From positions 174 through 64,173 of the IMG/VR virus record IMGVR_UViG_3300037466_002669: a stretch of DNA of 64,000 nt; one strand, given 5' to 3'. The DNA comes from a virus. Lineage: Duplodnaviria > Caudoviricetes. The translations under genes were made by a program, and so were the position numbers. The notes beneath the pieces are model-generated. The model saw only the letters and a list, made by a program, of their open reading frames with translations, ran no database searches and was not told where the DNA came from. Shown here one piece after another: positions 1 through 51,550 of this stretch (its first letter is position 1; each line of letters starts with the position of its first letter).

Positions 1-300
1 GATTTTAGTACATCTGATATGGTAGGGTAATGACTCACTCCCAACTTACTTTATACATTTTTACCTGTTCAAAAGGATGAATTACGCTTGTAACCGAATA
101 CCCTAAATCCATTAATTTTTTAACACCTTCAAGATTTATATGGATACCGAATAATAGAACTTCTTCAAATCCTAATTTAGACTGTGATTCAATTCTTTCA
201 ATAGCCTTTTCATAGTTTGCTGATTGAGCTATTTTTGCATCTGATCTTGCTTCAGATGCGTATAAAGTCTTTTTTACTTTTTTATCTTCCATCTGTTTTA
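1..300. repeat. Near-identical block to 51259-~51560 (offset 51,258)
   Basis: gattttagtacatctgatatggtagggtaatg at 1 and 51259; 85-aa ORFs differ at two residues. Confidence 0.95.
35..292 (-). CDS. Hypothetical phage protein (allele A of 51293..51550)
   Basis: 85-aa ORF conserved in both copies. Confidence 0.8.
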   Translation of the reverse strand: MEDKKVKKTLYASEARSDAKIAQSANYEKAIERIESQSKLGFEEVLLFGIHINLEGVKKLMDLGYSVTSVIHPFEQVKMYKVSWE

Positions 301-310
301 TTTTAGTTAT

Positions 311-646
311 TTAAAAATCAAGGTCAAAAATGATAGTTCCTTTTGGTAGAATAACAGCTTCATCTTCGGCGGCTTCCCGGTCGCTTTCGTCTTCTGAATT
401 AGCGTAACTACTTTTTGTTTCCAACCCTTCACCGGACGGATTAATTAAATCATCCTGAATCTCAGAGATAGCGTAAATTCCGCCTGCTTTTTCTTCGCCC
501 CAAACTCTTACAGGTTGTTTTAATTTATCTGGCGTTAGGGTTAAGCAGAAGTTGTAAATGTCTTCCCATATTAAACTTTTTTCATCGCCCTTTTTGTCCA
601 TCCTGTGAGGACGAACAAGCTGTTTTGTCATTTGTAAATCTTCCAT
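311..646 (-). CDS. Hypothetical protein, copy A only
   Basis: 111-aa ORF co-oriented in early operon. Confidence 0.7.
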   Translation of the reverse strand: MEDLQMTKQLVRPHRMDKKGDEKSLIWEDIYNFCLTLTPDKLKQPVRVWGEEKAGGIYAISEIQDDLINPSGEGLETKSSYANSEDESDREAAEDEAVILPKGTIIFDLDF

Positions 647-650
647 TTTT

Positions 651-848
651 TTAAATTTTACTTGTTTTGTTTAAGAAATCTTTCAATGATTTTTGAAACC
701 CTTTTTGACAACAAAAAAGATATTTTTGATTACCGACTTTAATTTCATCGGTTGGCTCCTTATCACATGCTTCAATTTTGCATACCTGTATAAATTTTTG
801 TTTTGAATTTATACCATCCGGTTTCTGTAAAGAATTCTGCTTTGTCAT
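651..848 (-). CDS. Hypothetical Cys-containing protein, copy A only
   Basis: 65-aa ORF, tight spacing. Confidence 0.6.
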   Translation of the reverse strand: MTKQNSLQKPDGINSKQKFIQVCKIEACDKEPTDEIKVGNQKYLFCCQKGFQKSLKDFLNKTSKI

Positions 849-866
849 CTGGTTTTATTTTAATTG

Positions 867-1064
867 TTATTCTTCATCCAAAATAACAACTACAGTGTCC
901 CGCGCCAATGCTTCTTCATCGTCCGGATCTTCTATAAAATTTATCTCATCACTTCTTACTGAATTCACTAATCCATAAGCAAATTCTGTTTTTCTTTCAG
1001 CTACAAATACATCCATGTTATCTGGATATTGAGATAGCTCTTCGCGTAGTTGTTTTACTGTCAT
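867..1064 (-). CDS. Small acidic hypothetical protein (allele of 51873..52067)
   Basis: Near-identical protein in copy B. Confidence 0.8.
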   Translation of the reverse strand: MTVKQLREELSQYPDNMDVFVAERKTEFAYGLVNSVRSDEINFIEDPDDEEALARDTVVVILDEE

Positions 1065-1072
1065 AAGATTTT

Positions 1073-1516
1073 TTATTTTGGTTGTTGATATTGTTCGTAC
1101 TCTTCACGGGTGGATGGAACGCAATTATCGAGGTGCATACTAATTTCTTCTTCATCGTGAGTTCCGGTATTGTCTAAAACAAGTATTAGTGCATAAGGCT
1201 CGTTTTCATTCCCATAATTGTAGCCTTCATCTGGATAATTACCATAAGCAATAGGTTTAAAAACACCGCAGATGCTACATCCACTATTGACTACTTTTAC
1301 ATACTCCGGCAAGTCTTCAATCTTTCTTTCTTCCCACCACTCCAATTTTTTAAAAAGGTGCGGGTATTCTTGCATATAGCCGCTATTACAAAAGCCTTCT
1401 CCTTTTACCAAATATGCTGATGTTCCGATTATAATATTACCCATTTCAAATGCCTGCGAAGGATAATCAGCAATTACTTTGTAGCGCGGTTTCAAAATCT
1501 CTTCTTTACTAAGCAT
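1073..1516 (-). CDS. Hypothetical protein, copy A only
   Basis: 147-aa ORF. Confidence 0.7.
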   Translation of the reverse strand: MLSKEEILKPRYKVIADYPSQAFEMGNIIIGTSAYLVKGEGFCNSGYMQEYPHLFKKLEWWEERKIEDLPEYVKVVNSGCSICGVFKPIAYGNYPDEGYNYGNENEPYALILVLDNTGTHDEEEISMHLDNCVPSTREEYEQYQQPK

Positions 1517-1527
1517 AATTTTTTATT

Positions 1528-1992
1528 TTAGATAAGTTCAAAAATGTAAATCAAATCCTTGTTCCATACTTTCTGTTCTGCTTCTTCCCATTCAAGTAGT
1601 TCTAATGCACCGTTTCGTTGAGAAAATAAAATAGGTGTACCGTCCGGTTTTTCGCCTAATGGATTCTCAAAATAAACTCCGTTGGCTTGTAAATAAGAGA
1701 AGAAAGATTCTTTGGCGGTTTTTACCCATCTATCTATAATAACGCCTTGCCAGTTGTAATTTTGAAAATGCTGATCTTGCATTAATTTTTCTACCCAATT
1801 CTGGAATTGCTCTTCTGTTATATAGGTTAGTTTGCCGACTTCTTTAATATTAAAATCAAATTTTGCCACGACTTTTGAAAATGGTTTAAAGTATGTCAAA
1901 TAATTGCCAAATCTTACTTTTACATTATAAGCACCTTCCGGCATCTCTACTAACAATAATTTCTTTTTAAGATTGAGTATTTGTTGTTTCAT
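1528..1992 (-). CDS. Hypothetical protein, likely start MKQQILN at 1992 (mosaic allele of 52288..52683)
   Basis: Copy B homolog starts at the same MKQQILNLKKKLLLVE and ends EEAEQKVWNKDLIYxFExI. Confidence 0.75.
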   Translation of the reverse strand: MKQQILNLKKKLLLVEMPEGAYNVKVRFGNYLTYFKPFSKVVAKFDFNIKEVGKLTYITEEQFQNWVEKLMQDQHFQNYNWQGVIIDRWVKTAKESFFSYLQANGVYFENPLGEKPDGTPILFSQRNGALELLEWEEAEQKVWNKDLIYIFELI

Positions 1993-2153
1993 TTGGGTTA
2001 AATTATTTTTGAGAAATAATAAGTGATTAATTCTTTTATTGTTAACCATTTATGGCAACCTTTAATGTCATACATCGTAACGCCTCCTCTCACTTCTTTT
2101 TTACAACTTTCTTCAAATTGAGCAAAGCCTGTTATTTGTTGTTTCATTGATTG

Positions 2154-2348
2154 TTATTTTAATAGTTCTAACCTGCTTTTTATTAACGCAGCACCTTCAT
2201 AATTTTCGGTTTGAACCTGATGTTTCATTAGTTTCAATAAATCTTCTTTATTCATCAATACCACAAATTCTATTGGTATAGAAATTTCTTTTTCAGTCGT
2301 TTCCAATAAACCTAAATATTCAGAAATACCTTTATGAAACATTTTCAT
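2154..2348 (-). CDS. Hypothetical protein with UVR-like C-terminal coil motif (ENYEGAALIKSRL)
   Basis: 64-aa ORF; motif resemblance only. Confidence 0.5.
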   Translation of the reverse strand: MKMFHKGISEYLGLLETTEKEISIPIEFVVLMNKEDLLKLMKHQVQTENYEGAALIKSRLELLK

Positions 2349-2358
2349 TTTACTTCAT

Positions 2359-2562
2359 TTATTGGTTTAATAATTCAACTTCATACCACAAGAATCTTAC
2401 GGGTTTCCCGTTTTTCATAAGGCAGTTAATCCACTTTGTTTCTCGTGGGTACTTTCTTCCCTGTTGCACTATTTCAATATTTTTGACTTCAAATATTTGC
2501 CACAGATATAAGCCCAAAGACTGTCTGGTATTCTTATCCATATTTACTATTCTTGCTCTCAA
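2359..2562 (-). CDS. Hypothetical protein
   Basis: 67-aa ORF, overlapping stop/start with neighbour. Confidence 0.6.
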   Translation of the reverse strand: MRARIVNMDKNTRQSLGLYLWQIFEVKNIEIVQQGRKYPRETKWINCLMKNGKPVRFLWYEVELLNQ

Positions 2563-2744
2563 ATTGGTTTAATTTCTACTTCTACTTTAATACATTTCCA
2601 GCCACGTTTTTTAAATTCTTTCCATTCAAAAAATCCTTCGTCCTCAAAACACTTTATCGACCTCTTTTTAGTTTCGGCAAGCGTTGAAAAGTCGTAAAAA
2701 GTCTTTTTAAATTCCTTTACACAGCACCAAAGTTTTTGTTTCAT
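2559..2744 (-). CDS. Hypothetical protein
   Basis: 61-aa ORF, ATGA-type coupling. Confidence 0.6.
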   Translation of the reverse strand: MKQKLWCCVKEFKKTFYDFSTLAETKKRSIKCFEDEGFFEWKEFKKRGWKCIKVEVEIKPI

Positions 2745-3124
2745 ATTTTTTCTTTTAAAGTTTTAGAATCAATAGCAAGACCGGATTCAATTAATCCGAA
2801 AAGATCAAAATGGCGAGAAAGGAGATAACGTACATCCTCAGGAGACCACGTAGTTAATCTAATTATGTAATTCATGTCTGCTCGTTCAACTCCTTTCAAA
2901 TTCCCTCTTTCACTTCTTAAACTTTTCAACTCTTCATCTGTCATATCAGAAAGTTTGCGCAGTTGAATTTGTATATCCTTTATACTCCAGTCGGTAGTTA
3001 TTTTGTTTAAAACATTTGTGGTTAACTGCTCCCAAACAGTCCATGTATTTTCTTCGTAATCATAATACGTGTACCTGACTTTTGCACCTAAATAGAGGTG
3101 GATAAAATCTTTTAATTCTTTCAT
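2741..3124 (-). CDS. Hypothetical phage protein
   Basis: 127-aa ORF, coupled to neighbours. Confidence 0.7.
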   Translation of the reverse strand: MKELKDFIHLYLGAKVRYTYYDYEENTWTVWEQLTTNVLNKITTDWSIKDIQIQLRKLSDMTDEELKSLRSERGNLKGVERADMNYIIRLTTWSPEDVRYLLSRHFDLFGLIESGLAIDSKTLKEKI

Positions 3125-3318
3125 AATTTCTTTTTTACAGTAGTAATAACTATTTGGTTATCCGGTATGTTAAATTGTTTTTGCCAATCAAATACCTGTT
3201 TAGGGAACGGAATTAAACTTTCGCCTACTTCCAATTTTTTCCATTTGAAAAATATTTTTTTCAATAGAGAATATCTGTAGTTATCATTCGTACACTCAAC
3301 TTGTATCTTGTATTTCAT
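3121..3318 (-). CDS. Hypothetical protein (likely start MKYKIQ)
   Basis: ATG at 3318 is more plausible than the TTG at 3363. Confidence 0.55.
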   Translation of the reverse strand: MKYKIQVECTNDNYRYSLLKKIFFKWKKLEVGESLIPFPKQVFDWQKQFNIPDNQIVITTVKKKL

Positions 3319-3350
3319 AATTTCTTTTTTACAGTAAACAAATTTTAGTT

Positions 3351-3505
3351 TTATAAATTCCAAACAGCCTTGTATCTTTTAATAAAATCTGCCGGAAAAT
3401 CAGTTTTAAAACCACAGCGAGGACACACAAATTGTTCGTATTAATGCAATAAGGTGTGTACCCCTCCCTTGTCATTAAATTTTCTCTTACAATTGATGAT
3501 TCCAT
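3351..3505 (-). pseudogene. Frameshifted small CxxC protein gene
   Basis: MESSIVRENLMTREGYTPYC in one frame; EQFVCPRCGFKTDFPADFIKRYKAVWNL* in another, 8 nt later. Confidence 0.5.
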
Positions 3506-3510
3506 AACTT

Positions 3511-3765
3511 TTAATTTTTAAAAATGTATTCTCTTAATTCCGGTTCTATTGATTCATTCATTTTACTTTCTGCGATTAATACTATTTCCCATTCACTATT
3601 TTCCATAGCCCTTTGATACTTATTCTTAAGAGATTCTGTCATCCATTTTATATAAGATTCTCTTACGTGGTAATTACTTTCAAAATCCATAAAATAATCC
3701 TTATTAGGTGGGGTTAAATCCACCGTTACCATAAAAGAACCTCTTATGTATAGTTCAAGTTTCAT
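3511..3765 (-). CDS. Hypothetical protein (truncated allele at 53266..53364)
   Basis: 84-aa ORF; first 32 codons conserved in copy B. Confidence 0.75.
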   Translation of the reverse strand: MKLELYIRGSFMVTVDLTPPNKDYFMDFESNYHVRESYIKWMTESLKNKYQRAMENSEWEIVLIAESKMNESIEPELREYIFKN

Positions 3766-4059
3766 TCAGTATTCGCAGTCATAAAAGTTCAACCTGTTTT
3801 CAAAATCTTGTAATTCTTTCATGCTGTTTGCTACGAAATTTAACATTGCGCCATTCGGCAATAAAACAGCGAACGTCCAGCAATTATAAAAACCGTGAAG
3901 TATCAATTTTATATCAGTGTCTTCGGGTGTATTATTAATTGGATTCCTATTTTCTATTGCTTTTTCAAATAAGACGATTGCCGGTTTTTCTTTTGATTTA
4001 ATCCACCCGTCGGCCAATAATTCAGTTTCCGTTATTTGAGCTTTTTTAATTTTTGCCAT
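3766..4059 (-). CDS. Hypothetical protein, copy A only
   Basis: 97-aa ORF. Confidence 0.7.
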   Translation of the reverse strand: MAKIKKAQITETELLADGWIKSKEKPAIVLFEKAIENRNPINNTPEDTDIKLILHGFYNCWTFAVLLPNGAMLNFVANSMKELQDFENRLNFYDCEY

Positions 4060-4069
4060 TTTTTTTATT

Positions 4070-4348
4070 TTAAGTGTTACTGATAAATTTTAAAGTATGT
4101 AATATCCTTGCCGCCTGTCTTAAAGTTTCGTTAGTAAATCTGATTCCTGTTCCCCGGCATTCCCTGACTAAATCCACCTTCAACTCTTCTGGTAAATCTT
4201 CTATCGGGGTTAAATCTTCTCTCACAAGTAATTCGTAGGTTCTCAGTAGTACTCTTTTAGGAACCGGATTTTCTATAAAAAAATCGAGCATACTTTTATT
4301 CCTGTTGTACATTCCTACAAACTTTGAAGCGAGTTCGAGATCAATCAT
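4070..4348 (-). CDS. Hypothetical protein; C-terminal ~33 aa shared with 53812..54267
   Basis: DLVRECRxTGIRFTNExLRQAARILHTLKFISNT in both copies. Confidence 0.75.
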   Translation of the reverse strand: MIDLELASKFVGMYNRNKSMLDFFIENPVPKRVLLRTYELLVREDLTPIEDLPEELKVDLVRECRGTGIRFTNETLRQAARILHTLKFISNT

Positions 4349-5241
4349 TGTCTTAAATCTTTTCCTTTTACGTCAATAATGTTGAACATTTCTTTCATCC
4401 GGCTTCTTACCCTGAATCCGTACTTTTCCTGAATTTGATCAAAATTGCAATTAGTGGAAATTATCAATCTTGAAAAATCTGTACTGTTCAGATAATAGCT
4501 TTCTAAAAACTCTTTAAACCAATTAATTTTACTTCCGTAATGATTCACGGTTTCTTCGCTACCCACGTCGTCCAGATAGATTACTTTCCCTTTAGCCTGG
4601 AATCCACCGTATTCTCTCACTTCATCTGAAATATCAATCATAGAATAAATTGAGATTGGTTTTATTTTGTTATCCTTTACGCAATTCACCAGGTAGGTTT
4701 TTCCTATTCCCGAAATTCCCCGAATCAGCAAACCTTTTTTAAGTGAAAAGTTTAATTCTGTTTCAAAGCGCGGATCTTCTGAAAGAAAAAAACAAATAGT
4801 TTTTATTAGCGGTTTATTAAACTCATTTTGGATTAATTTTTTGCCATAATTCCGGCTGGCGCAAGACATAACTTTAAAAAAATAACTTGCGTCACATTCT
4901 TTTTTTAGTTGCTCGTAATCGAGTTTTTCTTGCTCTTCCAGCTGTTTTAATTTTTCCTTAATCTCAATGCCAGCGTGTTTATTTTCGTTAGCCACCCTTA
5001 GAATTTCCTCTACATCAATTTCTTTTTCCCAATCAATTGATTTTACTTTTAGTTCAATATTTTCAGCACTTTCTTTTTTATCCCACAGTTTCCAAACGAA
5101 ATGTTTTTTAGCAGTTTCTATGGCGTGGCTTACAGCTTGCTCTTTTTCTTCAGGGGTAAGAATCATTTCTTTTTCTTCAGGGATTATCGAAGTCCATTTC
5201 TTGCCCAACCTTTTGAGGGTGCTTTTTAGTAAGGTTTCCAT
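4345..5241 (-). CDS. DnaC/IstB-like AAA+ ATPase (helicase loader)
   Basis: Walker A GISGIGKT, Walker B IYLDDVG, ISTN sensor; directly downstream of initiator. Confidence 0.85.
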   Translation of the reverse strand: METLLKSTLKRLGKKWTSIIPEEKEMILTPEEKEQAVSHAIETAKKHFVWKLWDKKESAENIELKVKSIDWEKEIDVEEILRVANENKHAGIEIKEKLKQLEEQEKLDYEQLKKECDASYFFKVMSCASRNYGKKLIQNEFNKPLIKTICFFLSEDPRFETELNFSLKKGLLIRGISGIGKTYLVNCVKDNKIKPISIYSMIDISDEVREYGGFQAKGKVIYLDDVGSEETVNHYGSKINWFKEFLESYYLNSTDFSRLIISTNCNFDQIQEKYGFRVRSRMKEMFNIIDVKGKDLRQ

Positions 5242-5968
5242 TTTTTGCTTGTATGATTGATTGAAAATATTTTTCTATTTGGGTTAGTGAGTACCTGGAA
5301 AAATGTTTATCTGAAGCGACGAAAGAAACTAATTCTCCCCATCGGAGTTTGATTGCATACTGTTCGTCCTTGTTAGTAAAAATCGTTTGCTCCTTAAATC
5401 CGAGAATTTTCCCGAAATGAACCGAAATTTTTCTAAGCGATTGAAAATCTTTAATTTGATCTTCTGGATAACCTTCGTTTTTTTCGAGAAACATTTTCGA
5501 CATGGCAGGGATTAAATTTTCGATTCGCGCGCTTTCTTTTTCTTTTTCTTGTTCTTTTTCTTGTTCCATTTCCTTAGCCCCTTGTAAGGGGCTTGTAAGG
5601 GGCTTTAATGAAAAATCCGAATTTATTAAATCATATTTTTTAAGAACAGAAATAACATTTAAGTGCGCCCGGTTTTTTTCTGAAAGTTTCCCATATTGGA
5701 ACAAGATAAAAGAAGGAATAAACCATTTTTTACCGCCGTCAATTTTTACGATTCTAATTTCATCATCATTAAAAAGGGTTAGCGCTCCAGCCTGTGTAAT
5801 AGGCATATCTTTTCCTACATAAGTTTGTGCAATCTCAAAATCTACAATCCATATTCCGGCGTGGTCGCAATCGTGATAAAGGAAATCCCAAAGTAATTTG
5901 TAAGCTCCAGGTAAATTTCTCATAAATGGTTTTTTATACTTATTGGTGTCAGTGAATCTCTTAGGCAT
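5177..5968 (-). CDS. Phage replication initiator (replisome organizer)
   Basis: N-terminal winged-helix-like region, low-complexity EQEKE linker with DNA repeats, upstream of DnaC-like gene. Confidence 0.7.
   Translation of the reverse strand: MPKRFTDTNKYKKPFMRNLPGAYKLLWDFLYHDCDHAGIWIVDFEIAQTYVGKDMPITQAGALTLFNDDEIRIVKIDGGKKWFIPSFILFQYGKLSEKNRAHLNVISVLKKYDLINSDFSLKPLTSPLQGAKEMEQEKEQEKEKESARIENLIPAMSKMFLEKNEGYPEDQIKDFQSLRKISVHFGKILGFKEQTIFTNKDEQYAIKLRWGELVSFVASDKHFSRYSLTQIEKYFQSIIQAKNGNLTKKHPQKVGQEMDFDNP
5533..5606. repeat. Putative origin A: tandem cttgtaagggg repeats/palindrome plus purine-skewed tract inside initiator gene
   Basis: cttgtaagggg at 5581-5591 and 5592-5602; palindrome agcccctt..aaggggct; tttc/ttgttc run 5533-5566. 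Confidence 0.5.
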
Positions 5969-6017
5969 AATTCAGTTTGTTTTAAGTCTTTCATTGGAAT
6001 ATAAAATCAGTTAAAAA

Positions 6018-6443
6018 CTATATCATAGATTTAGCTTTATCCATTAAAGCCAGCATATCCTTCATATTGTTATACTCAATACATACAACAGCCTGTATAC
6101 CTTCATCGTCTATTATGTCAACTGATATAAACACGCTGCCGTCGTTATTTAGGAAAACAGTTTCAACAAGTATCCTATCGTTTGGTCTTAGATATTTCTG
6201 AGACAATATTGGAGCACCTATACTTTTGTGGTATTCAACAACCTTATGGCAATGTTTACAAAGTGTTTTTAATTTATCAACAGGAGCTTCCCAAGGGTCG
6301 CCGGAATATTCTTCGTGATGAACATGTAATTCAGTTTCTTTATCACCGCAAAGGGTACATTTAAAATTATCTCTGTTTAAAATTTCGAGCCGTTTTTTTT
6401 GCCATCTTGGGTCAAGCAGTTTTTCTGCATAGGTTTTTTTCAT
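6018..6443 (-). CDS. HNH endonuclease family protein
   Basis: RD..CxxCG...LHVHH...LCxxCH zinc/HNH pattern. Confidence 0.85.
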   Translation of the reverse strand: MKKTYAEKLLDPRWQKKRLEILNRDNFKCTLCGDKETELHVHHEEYSGDPWEAPVDKLKTLCKHCHKVVEYHKSIGAPILSQKYLRPNDRILVETVFLNNDGSVFISVDIIDDEGIQAVVCIEYNNMKDMLALMDKAKSMI

Positions 6444-6502
6444 TTTTTTTTCAGTTATTATTGGATAAAATCTAATCTCTTAATTCGTGTTACATAAGCG
6501 GG

Positions 6503-6685
6503 TTATTTTAGTGCGCGATCTTTCATTTCCCGGATCAATCTTAAAATTTCATTTGCGGTTTGAACATCTATTTTGTAGTCCACTGCAGAAACTTTTATAA
6601 AGTCTTCCATGAATTCTACATCATTAATAAGCTGCATTAATTTTTGTTCGTTCATTATTTTTATTTTTTTAATAATCCCCTCCAT
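6503..6685 (-). CDS. Hypothetical protein (2 aa differences from 57293..57475)
   Basis: ORF conserved in both copies. Confidence 0.65.
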   Translation of the reverse strand: MEGIIKKIKIMNEQKLMQLINDVEFMEDFIKVSAVDYKIDVQTANEILRLIREMKDRALK

Positions 6686-6905
6686 CGTAATCCATTTTTG
6701 TCTCTATATATTCGGCAGTAGCATCACTATCAACAGATTTATTATCCATGCGTGCCATATATCTATTGTTATTTTCATCTTTTGCATAAACGGTGACACC
6801 TGAGCCAACAAACATGAATAATGTTTTGGGCGCTTTCTTCATTACCCTTTTGAAACTTTTAAGCCAGTCGGTTTCTTCTTTTGTAAATTCTCTATACATT
6901 TTCAA
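6669..6905 (-). CDS. Hypothetical protein
   Basis: 78-aa ORF. Confidence 0.7.
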   Translation of the reverse strand: MKMYREFTKEETDWLKSFKRVMKKAPKTLFMFVGSGVTVYAKDENNNRYMARMDNKSVDSDATAEYIETKMDYDGGDY

Positions 6906-7116
6906 TTAATTTTAATTCTTTTATCGGAACGATTGATGCGTGTTTATTTCCCTTAAATAAAACCTTAGCGTGACTACCGGAAACATATCTTACACTCTTA
7001 ACTTTGCCGGTTATTTCCTGTACAATTCCGGTTTTAGTTATGTAGGTAAAAGACTTTCTATTTAAATGGTGTTTATAAGTCCATTCTACTGTTGCTCCGC
7101 TTTTTAAGTGTATCAT
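6892..7116 (-). CDS. Hypothetical protein
   Basis: 74-aa ORF. Confidence 0.7.
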   Translation of the reverse strand: MIHLKSGATVEWTYKHHLNRKSFTYITKTGIVQEITGKVKSVRYVSGSHAKVLFKGNKHASIVPIKELKLIENV

Positions 7117-7121
7117 GTTCT

Positions 7122-7759
7122 TTAAAATAATTCAGTTTGTAATATTTTTTTCGAGTGAATTCCTTTAAAGCAGTTAAGAATATGTAAGCCGGTTTCAGGA
7201 TGTACACAGTTTCTATAAATCTGATCTTTCCTGGAGTTTATTTTATATTTTGATAAATCAAAACCATATAGCTTACTCCATTCATCTCTTGTTCCTCTAT
7301 TTATGTCAGCTTCTTTTATCTCCGTATTAAAGATTCTAAAGTTGCTCCAAAATAAGTGTCGTCCCATTTCTTTTGTCGGTTTTATTAAAGGTTCATAAAA
7401 TGGATTTACATTTTCCACTACATACCCCCCCCGAAATAATGTTTGAGAAATATAATTTCCTGATACAACTTCATGTCAGGGTATTTCTTTTCTACTTTTC
7501 TATTATTTTTAAAACCCCACATTCTTGCCCTGCTATGGGTTTGACAAGGCGGAGAAGTCCATATAAAATCAAATTCTTCGTAATGGTCTAACAGGTATTG
7601 ATGGGCATCGGCTACAATCACATTATCATCAGGGAAGTAATCTTTATAAACCGCTGCAATGTCTTCCCTGTATTCAACCGCCGTCACTTGTACCTCTTCC
7701 CAAAGTTTCCGGTTTCCTCCGATGCCGGCATACAGGTTTAATACTTTGAATTTTTTCAT
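7122..7759 (-). CDS. C5-cytosine DNA methyltransferase split by a frameshift at a G8 tract (possibly phase variable)
   Basis: Motif I LYAGIGG and motif IV SPPCQ in 7418..7759; motif VI ENV begins 7122..7418; C8 on + strand at 7425-7432 is the junction. Confidence 0.85.
7425..7432 (-). repeat. G8 homopolymer (simple sequence repeat) in methyltransferase
   Basis: catacccccccc gaaata. Confidence 0.95.
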
Positions 7760-7783
7760 TTTTATTCAGTAAACAATTAGTTA

Positions 7784-7999
7784 TTACGCTATTTTTAAAT
7801 ATTCATCCACATTAAAAAATCCTTCTTTCACTGATTCTTTTTTCTTCCGGTTATAAGGGTATTTAGCCAGATTTTCTTCTCTTTTGAACTTCTGTATAAA
7901 GAATCTCGTCGTTCCTAAAATACTGGCCATTTGAGGTTCAGTTAATTTTAAATAGTTGTTGCGGATGAAGTTCTTTTCGTGGTCGGTTAATTGTCTCAT
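7784..7999 (-). CDS. Small HTH-like DNA-binding protein
   Basis: LTEPQMASILGTTRFFIQ helix-turn-helix-like pattern. Confidence 0.55.
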   Translation of the reverse strand: MRQLTDHEKNFIRNNYLKLTEPQMASILGTTRFFIQKFKREENLAKYPYNRKKKESVKEGFFNVDEYLKIA

Positions 8000-8039
8000 A
8001 ATTTTTTTAATTCAGTTATAATTATTATGCTGTGTAATT

Positions 8040-8450
8040 CTATTTACAGACTTTTCTTATAAACTCAATTGGATTTTTGCAGTTAAATTTTTTAGACAAA
8101 CTAAAAATTGCGAAGGCTCTATTTGTTCCGTTGGTCAGATCTAATTCGTTTTCTATAGCTTGAAAAATTCCAAATTGCCTACATTGCTTTAGTGTGATTA
8201 CTCCTGCGTCTAATTGGGATGGGCAAACCTGTCGTAACCAAAAATCAAGAGGGCAATTACTTTTTTCATTATAAGGTGCAATAACTTCATTAAAGTATTT
8301 ATTGACAGGTGCGAAGTCTGTAGTTTCAATTATAAAATAGTTATTTTTATCCCACTCGTAGCCACTTTTAAAAGGTAATGATTTTTTTAAATCAGGGAAG
8401 TGCTTAACAACTTCTTCTGAGCATAGGTAATATTCAATTTCTGTTTTCAT
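8040..8450 (-). CDS. Hypothetical protein
   Basis: 136-aa ORF. Confidence 0.7.
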   Translation of the reverse strand: MKTEIEYYLCSEEVVKHFPDLKKSLPFKSGYEWDKNNYFIIETTDFAPVNKYFNEVIAPYNEKSNCPLDFWLRQVCPSQLDAGVITLKQCRQFGIFQAIENELDLTNGTNRAFAIFSLSKKFNCKNPIEFIRKVCK

Positions 8451-8483
8451 TTTTATATTGGTTTAAATATTTCGTTTTATTTT

Positions 8484-8957
8484 TTAATGCTTCATAAAAC
8501 ACAACCAAATTGTTTTTCCAGATTTCGCAGTTCTATGACCAAACAGCGGTTTATGATTTGTCAGCTGTAATACTTCGCTAACTTTTATTTGCGCCTCGTT
8601 CCATTTAAATATTAAAATTCCAAACGGTTCTAAAACCCGGAAACATTCTGAAAAACCCTGCTCAATATCTTTATGCCAATCAAAAGATAAAACACCGTAC
8701 TTCTTAGCCATCCATGTGTTATGGCCTAATTTTTTCATATGAGGCGGGTCGAAAACAACTACTTTAAATTTATTGTCTTCAAAAGGCATATTCCTAAAAT
8801 CAACTTCTAAATCAGGTTTGATTTCAAGGCTTCTTCCATCACACAAAACGTGGCTTTCTATTCTTTTATCTGTAAATAAAACATCCGGGTTATTTTTATC
8901 AAACCAGAACATTCTACTTCCACAGCAGGCATCAAGAATTAAGGGTACTTCAGGCAT
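8484..8957 (-). CDS. SAM-dependent (amino-type) methyltransferase
   Basis: LDACCGS SAM-binding motif and FDPPH catalytic-type motif. Confidence 0.8.
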   Translation of the reverse strand: MPEVPLILDACCGSRMFWFDKNNPDVLFTDKRIESHVLCDGRSLEIKPDLEVDFRNMPFEDNKFKVVVFDPPHMKKLGHNTWMAKKYGVLSFDWHKDIEQGFSECFRVLEPFGILIFKWNEAQIKVSEVLQLTNHKPLFGHRTAKSGKTIWLCFMKH

Positions 8958-9005
8958 TGGTTATAAATATTTTTTGCTTCAAATTCTTGTTTAAACTTTC
9001 CTCAC

Positions 9006-9362
9006 TTATTTCACTTTCCTTTCAATAAGTTGTAGATCAATTACCATATCTTTTAAATAAAGATCATCGGTATAAAACGCTCTCATGTTTTCAAAACTTT
9101 TATCAACAAATGCGCGTAAATTTTTTATACCGCTTATATAGATTTCGGGTATTGATCTATCTTTAAAAAACTTCCCAAGCCTCGCAGCTTCATCAATTAT
9201 TTCCTGCCTGTTTTTGAAAGGGAACAATGATTCAGTTATTTCCGTTTCTGAGCTCCTCAAATCTTCGTCGCTTATCTCATCAATGACCACTACATCCTGG
9301 TCAACTACAACCACTTCTTTTGGCTGCAAAACGATTTTATTGAGCGTTGATAGCGATAGCAT
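9006..9362 (-). CDS. Hypothetical protein
   Basis: 118-aa ORF. Confidence 0.6.
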   Translation of the reverse strand: MLSLSTLNKIVLQPKEVVVVDQDVVVIDEISDEDLRSSETEITESLFPFKNRQEIIDEAARLGKFFKDRSIPEIYISGIKNLRAFVDKSFENMRAFYTDDLYLKDMVIDLQLIERKVK

Positions 9363-10608
9363 TTTTTAAGTTTTTAATTCCAAAATCTTTTCTGAACCAT
9401 CTTAATGTATAGTCCTGCTTTGCAATCACTCTTTCATATATCTTTTCTTCTATTCCTCTTTCTGAAAAAATCCAATACAGCATACATTCCTCCTCTCTGT
9501 CTTTTGACTGTATGCGTGCTTTTGCCTGTTGGTAGCTTACAGAAGAAAAGTCAATGTTGTACATCACAAGTGCATCGGCTGTGGAAAGGTTAATTCCTTC
9601 TCTGCCGCTTTGAATTTGCGAGCAAAAAACTTTATGTTTTGAATGATTAAACTCCTCTGGTGAAAGTGTGATCTGTTCGCCAAACACTTTTAAGAGCGCT
9701 GTAAACTCCGCTTTGAATTTGTAGAATATAGCAATCTTTTCTCCTGTGAAATAGGTTTTTATAAAGTCTGCTTTATATGTATCAAAAATTATTGAAGCGC
9801 CACTTTCAGCGATAACCGTTCCGGAATAAATTTGATGCAGCTTTTGCATCAACTTCACTTCTGTATCGGCAATTATTTCCTGTCCATCTTTGCCAATATG
9901 CACACGCGTTTTTTTTATTTTATCTGCAAGGGCATAGGTGCTGTTTTTCATCTCAACTTTTAAAACCTGCTCTTTTACAGCCTGCGTAAATCCTGCATCT
10001 TTTTGAGTGTAAGACAGAAACAAGTGCTTTATTTTTTCGTTAATCAAAAATTCGTTTGCGTAGCTGTAATCATTTAACTGGCGGTTAAAAACATATTTTG
10101 TCTTCTTATACACATAGCCAGCATTTGCCCAAGCGTAAAAGTTTTTATGATCAGCAAAAGGAGAGAAAGAGGAAACGTGTAATTGATGAAAAATTTGAGA
10201 AAAAGATTCAGGCGTAGGTGTTCCGGAAAGAAATATCACAGGTAGTCCTTGCGCAATATTTTTTAATAATTTTGTTCTTTCTGCAATCACAGGAAATTGT
10301 CCTAAACAATGCGCTTCGTCACAAATTATCAGATCAAAATTTTCTTCCTGAAAGTTTTGCAGTTGCTCATAGTTAGTAACCACTATTTGAAAAGAAGGTT
10401 TAAAATCCTGGTAGTCATTCTTAATTGATCTGATTGCTTTTTTCTTTGTAAGAAAAATTACTTTTTTTGCGCCATAAAGTTGTGCTGCATGAAAAGAGGT
10501 AATTGTCTTGCCTGTTCTAACCTCCATCGACAGGTAGGCGATCTTATGTTCTTTTAAAAGTACAGCCGCCGAAACGGCTATACTTAATTGGTAGTCTCTT
10601 AGTGTCAT
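9337..10608 (-). CDS. Superfamily 2 (SNF2-like, DEAH) helicase
   Basis: RTGKT, CDEAH, LSGTP, GREGINLS, QAKARI motifs. Confidence 0.9.
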   Translation of the reverse strand: MTLRDYQLSIAVSAAVLLKEHKIAYLSMEVRTGKTITSFHAAQLYGAKKVIFLTKKKAIRSIKNDYQDFKPSFQIVVTNYEQLQNFQEENFDLIICDEAHCLGQFPVIAERTKLLKNIAQGLPVIFLSGTPTPESFSQIFHQLHVSSFSPFADHKNFYAWANAGYVYKKTKYVFNRQLNDYSYANEFLINEKIKHLFLSYTQKDAGFTQAVKEQVLKVEMKNSTYALADKIKKTRVHIGKDGQEIIADTEVKLMQKLHQIYSGTVIAESGASIIFDTYKADFIKTYFTGEKIAIFYKFKAEFTALLKVFGEQITLSPEEFNHSKHKVFCSQIQSGREGINLSTADALVMYNIDFSSVSYQQAKARIQSKDREEECMLYWIFSERGIEEKIYERVIAKQDYTLRWFRKDFGIKNLKNAIAINAQ

Positions 10609-10973
10609 ACTACGGCCTCCTCTTGCTCCTGGTTAAATAAATTCCATTCTTCACTTGTCATTTTTTCGATAATCTTTTGATTGTTATCTTTTCTGATTAT
10701 CGTTTTCTTCCCCTGCTCTGGTTTGTGATATTTAATCTCACACTCAACTTCACGTATTTCATAGCCGCTTGCAACCTTATTTGAGAGAGAATTCAAATCA
10801 GACTGAATAGAATCAAGTCTTGATTTAAACTGACTGCTTACGCTTTTCTTTTCATCGCTTACCGTCTGGAATTGTTGCGTTTTATTTGCCAAGTCCATTG
10901 ACAGGTCATGAATTTCAGGTGCAGTAAAATCATAGCGAAGCCACCTTTTTTCTGAATTGTTTAACACTTCCAT
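10605..10973 (-). CDS. Hypothetical coiled-coil protein
   Basis: 122-aa ORF. Confidence 0.7.
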   Translation of the reverse strand: MEVLNNSEKRWLRYDFTAPEIHDLSMDLANKTQQFQTVSDEKKSVSSQFKSRLDSIQSDLNSLSNKVASGYEIREVECEIKYHKPEQGKKTIIRKDNNQKIIEKMTSEEWNLFNQEQEEAVV

Positions 10974-10992
10974 TTTTATTTTGGTTTAAAGA

Positions 10993-11592
10993 TTAAAAAG
11001 GCATTTCATCTTCTGTTTCTTCGCCGGCCATTGCAGGTTCAGGGGTAGCTGTTTTTGAAAGTTTTGGGAAAATATCGTTTACTACCATTCTTTCAAGAAA
11101 GCTCATTAAATCGCTATCATCCCATTGAAGCTTGCCTTTTACTTTTATTTGCACCATTTGAGGCAAACCATTTGGATTTTCTTTTGTGTAAAAATGCTTC
11201 AAGGCCTTGCCGTCCTGGTTTAAAAAAAGTGTTACTTTCTTTTTGTCGCCTTCAATTTTCATTGATGGAGAAAAGCGCACCCTCTTTGTCAGGTCAACAT
11301 TTGGCAGCGTCTTTAAAAATGCTGAAGCATAGCCGCCGGAATAATTCATTTGGAGAATATACTTCTCTTCTCCATCCTGAATTGACACGTTCCAAAATCT
11401 ACCGAAAGAAGGATGGTCATGCGTTTTGATGTCGGTAATAATACCGCTCACGCCATCATAAATTTCTTCGTGGATCACGTTACCATTTTTCAGCGTCCGT
11501 GATTGTGAAATGTCAGTGGGTTGCTTTACCCGCTTTGTAATTTTGCCGTCACCGATTGATAGGTAAACAGCGTTGTTGTTTTTTTCTAACAT
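10993..11592 (-). CDS. Putative single-stranded DNA-binding protein
   Basis: Beta-rich, acidic tail ending EDEMPF, in recombination/replication cluster. Confidence 0.55.
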   Translation of the reverse strand: MLEKNNNAVYLSIGDGKITKRVKQPTDISQSRTLKNGNVIHEEIYDGVSGIITDIKTHDHPSFGRFWNVSIQDGEEKYILQMNYSGGYASAFLKTLPNVDLTKRVRFSPSMKIEGDKKKVTLFLNQDGKALKHFYTKENPNGLPQMVQIKVKGKLQWDDSDLMSFLERMVVNDIFPKLSKTATPEPAMAGEETEDEMPF

Positions 11593-11598
11593 AAAATT

Positions 11599-12078
11599 TT
11601 AAAATTTAAATTGTGTTGATATATTGTTTCTAATTTGATATACGAGTGTGGAATAAGGAATTCTTGTTTTTATTGAAGCGTCCTTAATTGTATTAAATAT
11701 CTCTCCTGTTATTTTATCAATTATTTTTTTTGATTTGAAGTGCTTGCCCCCAGAGGGAGGTGTTCTTAAACCTGTTATTAATGCGTGTTTTTGATTTTCT
11801 GAAATGGTGCACCATTCCAAATTTTCGACAACATTGTTATGTTTATTACCATCGATATGGTTTATAAAATTCTTGCCGTAAACCTTTGGCAGAAAATGAA
11901 GTGCAACAAGCCTGTGAATTTTAATTGTAGTAATTGTGCCGTTTTTTCGCAGGTTTACGTGCTTATAACCATTTGAACTTTTACCAGGAGATAAAACCTT
12001 GCCTTTATTGTTTTTTACGCTCCCGTCTGGAGATATAAAATACAAGCCCTCAAAACCTTCGATGTCTTTATAAGCCAT
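11599..12078 (-). CDS. NUMOD4/HNH homing endonuclease
   Basis: YKDIEGFEGLYFISPDG N-terminus; IHRLVA...INHIDGNKHNNVVENLEW. Confidence 0.9.
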   Translation of the reverse strand: MAYKDIEGFEGLYFISPDGSVKNNKGKVLSPGKSSNGYKHVNLRKNGTITTIKIHRLVALHFLPKVYGKNFINHIDGNKHNNVVENLEWCTISENQKHALITGLRTPPSGGKHFKSKKIIDKITGEIFNTIKDASIKTRIPYSTLVYQIRNNISTQFKF

Positions 12079-12110
12079 TTTGTTTTTAATTTAATTGTTA
12101 ATGAAAATTA

Positions 12111-12692
12111 TTATTGAGTGACTAATTGTGGTTTGGTAATGAGGTTATAAATTTGCCTTGTCAGGTCAATATCATATTGAGCTTCATGCAATCTGGTTTC
12201 ATCTATTTCTATTCCTAAATGTTTGGCTACAGTTTTAAGTTTGAAATCTGTCATTGTATGGCGGTTCTGGATAAGATGTTGTGACGCTAATACGAATACA
12301 TCAATAGGACTACTCCAGAACCATGAGCCGAAATAGTTATCATTGTTTTGAACGAAGAAGGCGCGGAAAAAAGCGTTATCAAAAGAAGCGTTATTGTATC
12401 CGACAAGGAAAAACTTATCTGATTTATCGTACCTGTCAACATATTTGGAAAGCAGATTAATTATTTGACAATAGACCTTTTCAAAATCTTCATACCCTTC
12501 TAAATCATTTCGTGAAATACCTGCCACAGCCAATGCTTCATCTTCAATTAGTGCCTGTTTAAATGGCTTCACGTTGAAATTAAAACGCTCTTTTATTTCT
12601 CCATCTATTTCAATGGCACCACTTATTTGATGAATTCCATTTTTCCAATATTTAACGCCTGTGGTTTCAAGATCAAAAAAGAATAGTTTCAT
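12111..12692 (-). CDS. DEDDh 3'-5' exonuclease (DnaQ/RNase T-like)
   Basis: FDLETTG, VGYNNASFD, HEAQYD motifs. Confidence 0.9.
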   Translation of the reverse strand: MKLFFFDLETTGVKYWKNGIHQISGAIEIDGEIKERFNFNVKPFKQALIEDEALAVAGISRNDLEGYEDFEKVYCQIINLLSKYVDRYDKSDKFFLVGYNNASFDNAFFRAFFVQNNDNYFGSWFWSSPIDVFVLASQHLIQNRHTMTDFKLKTVAKHLGIEIDETRLHEAQYDIDLTRQIYNLITKPQLVTQ

Positions 12693-12813
12693 TTTTATTT
12701 ACAGTTATTGAGTGACTAATTTTATTAAAAAGGAAGGGAGTTATAATATTGCTATAATGAAGCAAGACGTTATAACAATTTAAATTATAACTACCCCACC
12801 TGAGTGACTAATT
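12111..12813. repeat. Direct repeats ttattgagtgactaatt (12111-12127, 12705-12721) and tgagtgactaatt (12801-12813)
   Basis: Read directly from sequence. Confidence 0.9.
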
Positions 12814-13570
12814 TGTGTTTCAGTTGATAAGACAATTGCCGCGGCATCGCTCCTTCATTTTCCGCAAGCCAAAGTTTGTGCGTAGCTTGAAAAAGGTTCC
12901 ACTCTTTATCCAGGTTATCTTTAATAATTAACTGCCATCCCTTACCCTGCATAGTGCCAGCTTTGCCGTCAGTTTTTGTTTTTGCATTAAGCCAAAGGAT
13001 TGCCGTTTTCTGAATTGGGTTATAGCCGTATTCTTCGGTCAAAAGTTTTTCGTACGCTGCCAGTTGAAGCCAGTATGATGGCCATATTGAGCCGCTTGTT
13101 TTGATGTCGATCAAATATTTTTCACCATTCATTTCTATTACCCTGTCAAGCGTTCCTGCGAAGCCTAATTTTGCAGAAGCAAGCGATAGTTCTGAATGAA
13201 TAACCTCAAAAGGAAACCTTTCTCTGAATTCGATGTAGCGCTCGAACATAGCCCATTCACTCATTTTAAAGTTTACGTTCTCATCACCATATAAACATAT
13301 TTCTTCACCGGCATCATAGCGCTCTGTAAGGTTATGAACAACTGAGCCGCGGTTGCCTGCTTCATCTCTTATGGTATCTGAATCTTCGCCGTTTTTCTTT
13401 AGCCACTCGTAAAAGGCTGCGCCTTTCGGATACGCCTCTAATACGGTAGTTACGCTTGGCACTGGCACGCCGGCATTATCAAAATAAAACCTGTTATCCA
13501 GGAATGTTATCCTATTTTGCGATAGATCTATTTTGAAGTTTTTAGATCCGATTTTTGTAATTAGTTCCAT
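12791..13570 (-). CDS. PD-(D/E)XK exonuclease (RecB/Cas4-like family)
   Basis: PSVTTVL, GSVVH, GFAGTLD, IDIKTS, WLQLAAY motifs. Confidence 0.85.
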   Translation of the reverse strand: MELITKIGSKNFKIDLSQNRITFLDNRFYFDNAGVPVPSVTTVLEAYPKGAAFYEWLKKNGEDSDTIRDEAGNRGSVVHNLTERYDAGEEICLYGDENVNFKMSEWAMFERYIEFRERFPFEVIHSELSLASAKLGFAGTLDRVIEMNGEKYLIDIKTSGSIWPSYWLQLAAYEKLLTEEYGYNPIQKTAILWLNAKTKTDGKAGTMQGKGWQLIIKDNLDKEWNLFQATHKLWLAENEGAMPRQLSYQLKHKLVTQVG

Positions 13571-46820: not shown

Positions 46821-47012
46821 ATGAAACGTTTCTCTTTATTACTTATTGCAATTCCGGGAGGACTGGGATTTGTATTTTTATTCTGTGTGACCAGACTAGC
46901 TTATTTCCACAACAGCTTCTTTCAACGCAATCACATTGCTCTTGGCCTGTTATGTCTGGTCATCGCAGCAGTAATTTTTAAACTCAATTACAAACCTGGA
47001 AAAAAGAGATGA
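46821..47012 (+). CDS. Two-TM small membrane protein
   Basis: Two hydrophobic segments, basic tail. Confidence 0.6.
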   Translation: MKRFSLLLIAIPGGLGFVFLFCVTRLAYFHNSFFQRNHIALGLLCLVIAAVIFKLNYKPGKKR

Positions 47013-47320
47013 GCGAGGACGAAAAAAAAGAAATCATAGATAAAGAGTTAAGAGGCGTTACAGCCCGCAATCTACTATGGCTTATGGGTGGCATTGTAAC
47101 CGTCCTTATAACGGTAATGTCCACTTACTTTTCTATTATCCGAAAGTTGGACGGGCTTAATGTGATGCAGAATAATATCAATGTTATGTCTACTAAGGTC
47201 GAAAATAACACCGAAGATATCAAGAACATTCAACAACACATCATCCCTTCACTTGACAACCGAATGAGCATTATGGAAGAAAAAATGAAAGATAAAGTAT
47301 TTTTAAAAACAGCACCATGA
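47009..47320 (+). CDS. Single-TM coiled-coil protein (holin/antiholin-like)
   Basis: One TM segment plus coiled coil. Confidence 0.5.
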   Translation: MSEDEKKEIIDKELRGVTARNLLWLMGGIVTVLITVMSTYFSIIRKLDGLNVMQNNINVMSTKVENNTEDIKNIQQHIIPSLDNRMSIMEEKMKDKVFLKTAP

Positions 47321-47628
47321 CACAACTTATTTTACAGGTCTCTTTCATTATTCTGGCGGCAATTTGCAAGGCATTGACCGATACCATTGCCTTTCATAAA
47401 GGTGGTGTATTTAAGAGTAAGTTTTTCGACATTAATTCGCAAGGGAAATTCCTGCCGTTCACAAAATACCCCTTGGACGGGTTTCACCTCTCTAACTCTT
47501 TAATGATTGCCTTTTTCGTGGCTGCGATGTGCATCCCTTCGCCATTAGTCTGGTATTTTAATATTGTGCTTCTCGGCGTAATATTCAACCTTGTTTTTAA
47601 TCTTTTTTGGAACCATATTTTTAATTAA
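47317..47628 (+). CDS. Multi-TM membrane protein
   Basis: Three hydrophobic segments. Confidence 0.6.
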   Translation: MTQLILQVSFIILAAICKALTDTIAFHKGGVFKSKFFDINSQGKFLPFTKYPLDGFHLSNSLMIAFFVAAMCIPSPLVWYFNIVLLGVIFNLVFNLFWNHIFN

Positions 47629-47642
47629 AAAACTTTTTTGTT

Positions 47643-47801
47643 ATGAAAAATTTAAACTGGTATTTAATCAAATCAATTTTTGTTGAAGCTTTCGCAGGTG
47701 GTCTCTTTTGGTCTTATGGACACCATATAACTGGTGGGATCTTCTTTGCCCTTTGCGCGGCAACATTCGTGTATGCCATACTTAAAAAAATAATTCAATG
47801 A
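47643..47801 (+). CDS. 52-aa two-TM protein (not in ORF track)
   Basis: MKNLNWYLIKSIFVEAFAGGLFW...; TGA overlaps next ATG. Confidence 0.55.
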   Translation: MKNLNWYLIKSIFVEAFAGGLFWSYGHHITGGIFFALCAATFVYAILKKIIQ

Positions 47802-48190
47802 AAGAATTAATCTTCAAGTCCATTCATGACACCTTCACGATAATTGGAGGAGGAAAGCAGTTAAGCTATTATCTCGCGGGGTTCTTTTTTGCGTTCCTGG
47901 GAATTATGCTTTCGCTCTACCAGAGTTCTCGAAGCCGTGACAAATTAAGTCCAAGTACACCTTTAAAGTTTTCCTGGTTATTTCTTATTTGGGATAACCT
48001 AAGAAGGGCGGTAGTAACCCTTGTTGTGATGTTCATTCTGTTTCGGGTGCTGGATCTCTCTTATGTTCCTCTCATGATTGGGGTAGGGATAGTAGTTTCA
48101 GTGGCGCTCGATAGAATTATTGTATTGCTCATGAGTTGGAGTGATAACATTTTTGATTTACTCGCTTCTGCCAGAAAAAAAGCACAATGA
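47798..48190 (+). CDS. Putative holin
   Basis: Three TM segments, directly upstream of spanin. Confidence 0.5.
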   Translation: MKELIFKSIHDTFTIIGGGKQLSYYLAGFFFAFLGIMLSLYQSSRSRDKLSPSTPLKFSWLFLIWDNLRRAVVTLVVMFILFRVLDLSYVPLMIGVGIVVSVALDRIIVLLMSWSDNIFDLLASARKKAQ

Positions 48191-48708
48191 TAGACTATAA
48201 AAAATGGTTGCTCTTTTTATGCATTGCTGCGGTCGTGGTAATGCTGCTGACTTCATGCACCACCTCTAAAGACAATAAAGCATTCGCCAGGGTAACCGCA
48301 AATACAACTCTTCTTAACAAGGCTGGCCGCATTTGGGAAAAGTCAAACCCTTGTGTAGTTGATACAGTAATTCAATTTAAAAATGGTGTTGAAACGATTC
48401 GTTATGACACTCTTTGGAATGATGTAGTAAAAGTTTATTATGATACTGCAACCCGGACTAACACCGTAACAGAATACAAGACCATCGTGAAAAACGTAGT
48501 CAAAACCGACACCATTTTAGTCGACAAAACGGATGTGCGAAGATTGAATTTAGCCTTGTCAGATAACGACAAGTTACAAGCCGAAAACAACCAGGTTAAA
48601 TCCGACAATAAGGATCTGAAAAGTAAGTTAAATAAACGCACTTGGGAGTTTTGGGGATTGATAGTACTGATTGCAGGTGCAATAGGATTGAAATTTTATT
48701 TAAAATGA
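48187..48708 (+). CDS. Unimolecular spanin (u-spanin)
   Basis: N-terminal lipobox LTSC plus coiled coil plus C-terminal TM (WEFWGLIVLIAGAIGL). Confidence 0.75.
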   Translation: MIDYKKWLLFLCIAAVVVMLLTSCTTSKDNKAFARVTANTTLLNKAGRIWEKSNPCVVDTVIQFKNGVETIRYDTLWNDVVKVYYDTATRTNTVTEYKTIVKNVVKTDTILVDKTDVRRLNLALSDNDKLQAENNQVKSDNKDLKSKLNKRTWEFWGLIVLIAGAIGLKFYLK

Positions 48709-48743
48709 AACCTTTCTGTAAATAGGTTAACAGAATTAAAATT

Positions 48744-49019
48744 ATGAGTTGGAATATAGATTTTATCGGAAATCCCGAAAACGTAGTAAAGGCTCTTCAA
48801 GAAAACAGCGCAAAACTTGATGGAGCATCAAAAGTTGAATACGATGCTGTGGTGCCTCATCTTATAGGGTTAGTGAGTCAGAATTTCAATAGTAACAAAG
48901 CAGTTGGAATAGTAGTGAAAGTAACCGCATCTGGCCACGGTTATATTAGCACAGATGGTACTGATCAATACCGTCAATGTTCAGCTTCAGTAGAGCAACT
49001 TTATGGCGTTCTTGTTTAA
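48744..49019 (+). CDS. Hypothetical protein
   Basis: 91-aa ORF. Confidence 0.7.
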   Translation: MSWNIDFIGNPENVVKALQENSAKLDGASKVEYDAVVPHLIGLVSQNFNSNKAVGIVVKVTASGHGYISTDGTDQYRQCSASVEQLYGVLV

Positions 49020-50861: not shown

Positions 50862-51302
50862 TTATTTTTCACATTTAATATTTTTTTCAACTTCTCTTAA
50901 AACTTGCTGGTAATTAATACAGGTAAATCGTAAAACTTTCCACCCTAAACTAATTGCCAGATTAATCTTTTCAGTGTCTTTTGTGAATCCGAGAAGGGTT
51001 GTATGGCTCGACTTATCACTATTTAATCCATCGTACTCAATTGCTATTTTAAATTCCGGCAAAGCAAAATCAAACCTGAATCTTCTTTTACTGAATCGGT
51101 ATTCCTTTTCCAATGTGTACCCCTTTTCCTGGCACCAATATTTTAATTGCCATGCAATCCACTGCACTTCTTTACAATCGTTACGGGCTTTCTTTGCACT
51201 TTTCTTTGCAGGTTCTTTGCAGTTGTTTGCAAGGTGCTGGTTTCTTGGAGCACAAGCTGATTTTAGTACATCTGATATGGTAGGGTAATGGCTCACGCCC
51301 AA
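50862..51302 (-). CDS. DUF559/Vsr-like PD-(D/E)XK endonuclease
   Basis: EYRF..RRFRFDFA..KIAIEYDG...H...GWKVLRFT. Confidence 0.85.
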   Translation of the reverse strand: MGVSHYPTISDVLKSACAPRNQHLANNCKEPAKKSAKKARNDCKEVQWIAWQLKYWCQEKGYTLEKEYRFSKRRFRFDFALPEFKIAIEYDGLNSDKSSHTTLLGFTKDTEKINLAISLGWKVLRFTCINYQQVLREVEKNIKCEK

Positions 51303-51550
51303 CTTACTTTATACATTTTTACCTGTTCAAAAGGATGAATTACGCTTGTTACCGAATACCCTAAATCCATTAATTTTTTAACCCCTTCAAGATTTATATG
51401 GATACCGAATAATAGAACTTCTTCAAATCCTAATTTAGACTGTGATTCAATTCTTTCAATAGCCTTTTCATAGTTTGCTGATTGAGCTATTTTTGCATCT
51501 GATCTTGCTTCAGATGCGTATAAAGTCTTTTTTACTTTTTTCTCTTCCAT
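51293..51550 (-). CDS. Hypothetical protein (allele B of 35..292)
   Basis: Homology within window. Confidence 0.8.
   Translation of the reverse strand: MEEKKVKKTLYASEARSDAKIAQSANYEKAIERIESQSKLGFEEVLLFGIHINLEGVKKLMDLGYSVTSVIHPFEQVKMYKVSWA

Follow-up and report, generated by a model that had tools for sequence, protein, structure and literature searches.

A compact C5 cytosine methyltransferase gene in a temperate phage is broken at a run of eight G's, and comparison with its relatives suggests that this run is probably a slippage-prone contingency tract recorded in its OFF state. The gene occupies positions 7122-7759 (minus strand) of the window, the term used here for the whole 64,000-nt stretch of DNA that was analysed, and would encode 211-212 amino acids if read through. 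A slippage switch had been proposed in an earlier note on the same DNA, and it is the best-supported reading because relatives carry G9, the gene shows no decay, and the wider family is polymorphic in both tract length and reading frame at a second site. At the window's own site the lengths found are only G8 and G9, with G9 occurring at no more than 89.5% nucleotide identity.

Phage and contig

The window covers nearly all of its source, a virus record that consists of one contig of 64,173 bp. The phage is temperate, siphovirus-like and of Bacteroidota type, with a genome of about 51 kb whose gene content includes an integrase, large terminase, portal, tape measure and a leftward block of replication and modification genes. 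The contig makes 1.26 turns round this genome and passes through two variants of it (1-6446 versus 51259-57237). Between the passes, a 6.6-kb stretch is 100% identical (6626-13210 and 57416-64000), and the longer alignment of 6447-13210 with 57238-64000 has 99.9% identity, every difference being confined to 6447-6625. Upstream of 6626 the replication modules differ, with a DnaC-like loader in one pass and an 836-aa primase-polymerase in the other. The methylase gene and its surroundings comprise the following features.

7418-7759, minus strand: N-terminal half, 113 aa, with motif I (LYAGIGG) and motif IV (SPPCQ), ending HYF-GGG-M-stop
7425-7432, minus strand: run of eight G's in the coding strand (C8 on the plus strand), where the frame breaks; with G9 the ORF is in frame
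7122-7424, minus strand: C-terminal half in the -1 frame, with YVVENV (motif VI), GRHLFWSNF and RKDQIYRNCVHP, without internal stop
7416-7420, minus strand: TAGTG overlap, in which the stop of the N-terminal half overlaps the GTG opening a 98-aa ORF (M-ENVNPF...)
57912-58549, minus strand: second copy of the split gene, identical to the first, with G8 at 58215-58222
8484-8957, minus strand: neighbouring small DNA methyltransferase, 157 aa, intact and without a tract (phrog_954, 4.1e-76)

Both copies of the gene do carry G8, as had been noted earlier, but they are one identical stretch assembled twice, so the second G8 is not independent evidence. The intact 157-aa methyltransferase sits 0.7 kb upstream of the split gene in the same leftward block, which means that the phage encodes two orphan methylases. 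An HNH/NUMOD4 homing-type endonuclease (11599-12078, minus strand) is also present in this early block, as is an RNase T-like exonuclease (12111-12692, minus strand).

The break at the poly-G tract

The break lies where the earlier note had placed it: the N-terminal half runs through the G's and ends HYFGGGM-stop, and YVVENV continues in the -1 frame. Motif VI (ENV) is present, but the G8 allele puts it out of frame with motif IV, with which it is in frame in relatives carrying G9. Rereading the tract as G6 or G9 gives a single ORF of 211-212 aa, in agreement with the length of about 212 aa predicted earlier. In homopolymeric contingency loci, a run of about seven or more within an ORF sets the frame by its length, and the G8 run, with G9 or G6 restoring the ORF, has this feature.

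The tract had also been regarded as unusual for this genome. The two G8 tracts are the only G/C runs of at least 7 nt in the 64-kb window, but shuffled windows contain a mean of 0.35 G8 runs and 8 of 100 shuffles contain at least two. The mere presence of a G8 run in a window of this size is therefore no rarity, and the non-random feature is its coincidence with the sole frame break of a conserved gene.

Enzyme family and predicted fold

Identification of the product as a phage C5 DNA methyltransferase, made in the earlier note from its motifs, is borne out by motifs I and IV, by a DNMT-like structural model and by profile searches. The N-terminal half matches PF00145 with 40.3 bits, rising to 45.4 bits for the read-through sequence (gathering threshold 22), a match limited to profile positions 1-88. 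Its best PHROG is the DNA methyltransferase family phrog_363 (6.5e-18), and the C-terminal half alone has no Pfam or PHROG profile match. Residues G12, G14, G15 and C72, belonging to motifs I and IV, are invariant across the homolog alignments.

More than 8,000 database proteins match the C5-MTase, and the best 120 of these are single ORFs of about 207-244 aa with 67-92% identity. In the phage GenBank collection there is no close relative, the only matches being Vibrio phage methyltransferases with 67-69% nucleotide identity over part of the gene. Comparison of the residues between F and YVVENV, which the earlier note had proposed as a check, gives the family junction motif HYF-x-G-x-[WY]-VVENV. 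Since this motif fixes the spacing as F-x-G-x, only G9 (F-GGG-Y) fits the family.

An AlphaFold2 (AF2) model of the closest intact relative (P0002) has the Rossmann fold of a C5-MTase (pLDDT 88.4, pTM 0.86), and its best Foldseek matches in the PDB are DNMT2, DNMT3A/B and DNMT1 (probability 1.00, TMq up to 0.62). Between GRHLFWSNF and RKDQIYRNCVHP there are only about 40 residues where a target-recognition domain (TRD) would sit. The family is thus predicted to consist of TRD-poor methyltransferases of about 211 aa, almost devoid of a target-recognition domain and built on a DNMT3/DNMT2-like core. In the same model the residues encoded by the tract form a loop that connects helix 96-108 to the ENV strand (112-118), and a frame break at this position should inactivate the G8 allele, as motifs VI-X would be lost.

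Relatives of the window's tract and selection on the gene

Two relatives carry the window's tract at its in-frame length. L001 (Logan SRR23961922), with 92% amino acid and 89.5% nucleotide identity to the window, is intact with a pure G9 and the same flanks, and L003 (JGI 3300061627), with 78% amino acid identity, is intact with pure GGG GGG GGG and other flanking codons. The exact G8 allele recurs on a separate 6.3-kb JGI contig (L002) that is 100% identical to the window over 3,824 bp and may originate in the window's own population, perhaps even in its source sample, and the C-terminal half is found on a third contig (as P0123). Tract lengths at this site are accordingly G8 in the window's population and G9 only in relatives that are at most 89.5% identical in nucleotides; no near-identical genome with another tract length was found in IMG/VR, the JGI metagenome contigs, the GTDB genomes or a search of 5.8 billion proteins.

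Exact and degenerate DNA patterns of the window's tract yielded no further homologs in viral, metagenome and genome collections. The matches returned by the patterns GGGGGG+YVVENV and KHY[FY]+G7 in these collections (61 stretches, L004-L064, together with L128) are due to chance. A search for shorter proteins, combined with a listing of cluster members, gave no other frameshifted allele of the window's lineage, and the additional members of the protein cluster proved to be fragments at contig ends or homologs without the tract.

The composition of the tract departs from that of the family at large. In 42 other IMG/VR homologs the three tract codons have the form x-GGN-x, with K/E/D/N and K/L/Q as flanks, and the middle codon is mostly GGT, GGA or GGC; GGG makes up only 15% of Gly codons across the long ORFs of the window. 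L003 has diverged from the lineage of the window and L001 to saturation at synonymous sites (pS about 0.9), and all nine G's are retained. A pure G run at the window's site is thus kept beyond the codon-usage expectation. The tree separates the pair formed by the window and P0002 from P0033 (the protein of L003), and an AU test did not reject a single clade for the carriers of the pre-motif-VI tract, namely the L001/window lineage and L003 (p = 0.476), for which reason a convergent origin of this tract is not claimed.

Gene decay, which the earlier note had named as evidence that would point to a plain pseudogene, is absent. Compared with L001, dN/dS is 0.047 in the N-terminal half (dS 0.74) and 0.124 in the C-terminal half (dS 0.27, over 100 codons), and there are no stops in the 100 codons downstream of the frame break. 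Both halves of the split gene are, judging from these substitution rates, under purifying selection and without decay, which implies that the inactivation is recent or reversible.

A second poly-G site in the same family

Counting of G/C runs in the relatives brought to light a homolog (L069) whose G9 lies downstream of motif I and encodes GNRKLW-GG-D. When IMG/VR was scanned for the pattern of this post-motif-I site (GNRKLW-GG-D/E/V), 21 stretches from 20 contigs (L107-L127) were returned, with tracts from G7 to G12. The contigs bearing the tract represent distinct lineages, with the exception of three near-identical pairs. Examples of the tract, and the genes that are out of frame at it, are as follows.

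L108, 4575-4599: post-motif-I tract
L118, 4841-4863: post-motif-I tract
L123, 1960-1982: post-motif-I tract
L112, L114 and L116: out of frame at the run, G9
L118: out of frame at the run, G8
L123: out of frame at the run, G7
L126: out of frame at the run, G10

Alignment by tblastn placed 13 of the 19 evaluable tract genes in frame, all of them with G9, and in the other six the frame shifts precisely at the run, the sequence downstream being intact. Frameshifts are thus present in 6/19 genes with the tract versus 0/39 evaluable relatives without it (Fisher p = 0.0007). Allowing any glycine codon in the pattern added just three loci, with the result that GGG GGG is used at 19 of 22 W-G-G sites; codon usage would lead to an expectation of a few per cent, although the lineages are related and the counts not fully independent. 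Length heterogeneity is also recorded within a single assembly. In IMGVR_UViG_3300033463_000374 (40.5 kb), the two ends share a 159-nt overlap (L115:1-159 and L126:14468-14627) in which the only difference is C9 versus C10 in the tract of the methylase gene, so that both tract lengths are present in one assembly. This difference may be the reason why the circle failed to close cleanly.

The post-motif-I evidence concerns a different tract from the window's, in homologs about 50% identical. At the level of the family, the compared alleles show that poly-G runs in these C5-MTase genes are maintained and that frame changes occur at them.

Two other G-rich sites were observed in related phages. 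One contig (L090) has an in-frame G9 at 7018-7026, encoding N-GGG-T within an HNH-type endonuclease-like ORF (6697-7185), and this could be another slippage site. Another (L086) has two G7 runs 5 nt apart at 8542-8560 (GGGGGGGAAGAAGGGGGGG).

Alternative explanations

The split gene could be a plain and effectively irreversible pseudogene, in which a one-off -1 slip in a chance tract inactivated a dispensable methylase too recently for decay to be visible. G8 alone is seen in the window's population, a second intact methyltransferase lies nearby such that loss may be tolerated, and a G8 run somewhere in 64 kb is not improbable in itself. This explanation is nevertheless unlikely, given that the gene has no further lesions and low dN/dS in both halves, that a pure G9 has been kept through saturated synonymous divergence at a position where the family tolerates many residues, and that tracts recur in the family with heterogeneous lengths and about one third of alleles OFF. 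The pseudogene and the contingency tract differ only in whether the run is maintained for switching, and the codon and family evidence argues for its probable maintenance.

Homopolymer length is a classic source of indel errors, and the true genome might have G9 and an intact gene, the G8 being a miscount in sequencing or assembly. The contig over-runs its circular genome by 13 kb, as is common in long-read assemblies, and the two copies of the tract in the window are one identical stretch. Against this, a scan of 266 homopolymers in the window, including 17 A/T runs of 8-9 nt, identified no other real frameshift, in line with the observation of the earlier note that no other break was associated with a homopolymer. 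The ORF 'fusions' flagged by the scan are ordinary overlapping gene junctions (46900-48750 inspected), and pervasive homopolymer errors in the assembly are thereby ruled out. With the same G8 also present on the separate 6.3-kb contig L002, a miscount of this run is improbable.

A further possibility is that G8 is the normal state and that the full-length enzyme is produced by recoding, either through -1 ribosomal frameshifting on G_GGG_GGT or through slippage of the RNA polymerase. The sequence G GGG GGT formally matches the slippery heptamer X XXY YYZ, the stop codon follows two codons downstream, and the G run is Shine-Dalgarno-like. Low-level leaky slippage by ribosome or RNA polymerase is possible. 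The suggestion of the earlier note that a -1 slip on the G run would restore the frame does not, however, find support: the 90 nt downstream contain no stimulatory structure (MFE -9.2 kcal/mol, z = 0.54, with 136 of 200 shuffles folding at least as well), the two-frame layout is not conserved in relatives, where the window's tract is in frame at G9, and more than 100 homologs are single ORFs. Recoding as the normal route to the enzyme is accordingly very improbable.

Separate synthesis of the two halves, with restart at TAGTG and assembly as in naturally split C5-MTases, is scarcely credible in spite of the stop/start overlap and the Shine-Dalgarno-like G run 6 nt upstream of its GTG, since in the predicted fold the cut would fall within the Rossmann core, where the motif VI strand begins, and remove Y-V-V, a break at this position occurs in no other member of the family (the search for shorter proteins gave only the window's allele at high identity), and L001 reads these nucleotides in frame, making the arrangement incidental.

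Proposed switch and its significance

In the contingency-tract reading favoured here, the poly-G tract would lie in a surface-exposed, permissive loop immediately ahead of motif VI, with G9 (Gly-Gly-Gly) as the ON length. At G8, translation would stop after 113 residues, resulting in the loss of motifs VI-X and an enzyme that is OFF. Slipped-strand mispairing during replication would gain or lose a G, and a population of phages or lysogens might thus continually yield both ON and OFF variants in the manner of a contingency locus. The window's own tract would, on this account, switch reversibly at a high rate, and switching would be under selection. A plausible benefit is that the ON state would shield the phage from host Type II restriction and the OFF state would allow escape from methyl-directed Type IV nucleases.

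A wider proposal is held at somewhat less than even odds, namely that the family has repeatedly evolved and actively maintains poly-G in two permissive loops, one following motif I and one preceding motif VI, with about one third of alleles OFF, as a form of bet-hedging in which the window's tract would represent the rarer second position. Such bet-hedging would trade protection against Type II restriction for exposure to methyl-directed Type IV nucleases.

If the tract switches, one phage lineage would continuously make both methylated and unmethylated genomes, and the choice of hosts open to infection would depend on this, given the opposing pressures of restriction and methyl-directed defence. 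In lysogens, the host genome could acquire a variable layer of 5mC. Hedging between these two kinds of defence, or a reprogrammed methylome in the lysogen, had been put forward in the earlier note as what such a switch might do. A widespread methylase family of environmental Bacteroidota phages would in this way join the short list of phage contingency loci. For annotation, split genes of this kind should not be dismissed as pseudogenes or 'fixed' as errors. The practical value of this addition and this caution is modest but real.

Comparison with known systems

Repeat tracts are known to switch bacterial DNA methyltransferases, as in the Type III mod phasevarions and in the poly-G tracts of restriction-modification genes in Campylobacter and Helicobacter. 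The phage gene resembles these in having a simple sequence repeat within its methyltransferase ORF, with ON/OFF switching by slipped-strand mispairing as the mechanism proposed here. The bacterial examples are chromosomal, for the most part N6-adenine methyltransferases of Type III or Type IIG, and regulons have been demonstrated for some of them, whereas the gene described here encodes an orphan phage C5-MTase.

Among phages, Bordetella phage BPP-1 offers a precedent, as its DNA methylase gene is reported to contain a poly-G tract (Liu et al. 2004, J Bacteriol 186:1503, as cited in bioRxiv 10.1101/2025.10.21.683753). In terms of what is given in that citation, both are methylase genes of temperate phages with a poly-G run able to shift the frame, but the phage, the host phylum and the methylase family are different, the present enzyme being a 211-aa TRD-poor C5-MTase of Bacteroidota phages. 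Contingency loci have been shown experimentally in T2 and T4, where homopolymer runs in phage ORFs shift the frame reversibly and so diversify the population, which helps it to evade host defences (Gomez, Barrick and Waters 2025, bioRxiv 10.1101/2025.10.21.683753). The window's tract resembles these loci as a homopolymer run inside a phage ORF; the T2/T4 runs, one of them in the glucosyltransferase gene agt, belong to virulent coliphages and were measured experimentally, whereas the G8/G9 tract of the temperate-phage methylase is known from comparative evidence. In Campylobacter Fletchervirus phages, hypermutable polyG tracts of G7-G11 give rise to ON/OFF subpopulations (Sorensen et al. 2021, Cell Rep 35:109214). 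These tracts are located within genes for receptor-binding proteins and change the recognition of the host, in contrast to the DNA-modification gene considered here.

Poly-G switches in phage methylase genes have therefore already been reported, and the present case does not involve a new kind of mechanism. What is new is the compact TRD-poor C5-MTase family in which the tract occurs, its two recurrent tract positions, and the estimate that about one third of alleles are OFF at the commoner of the two.
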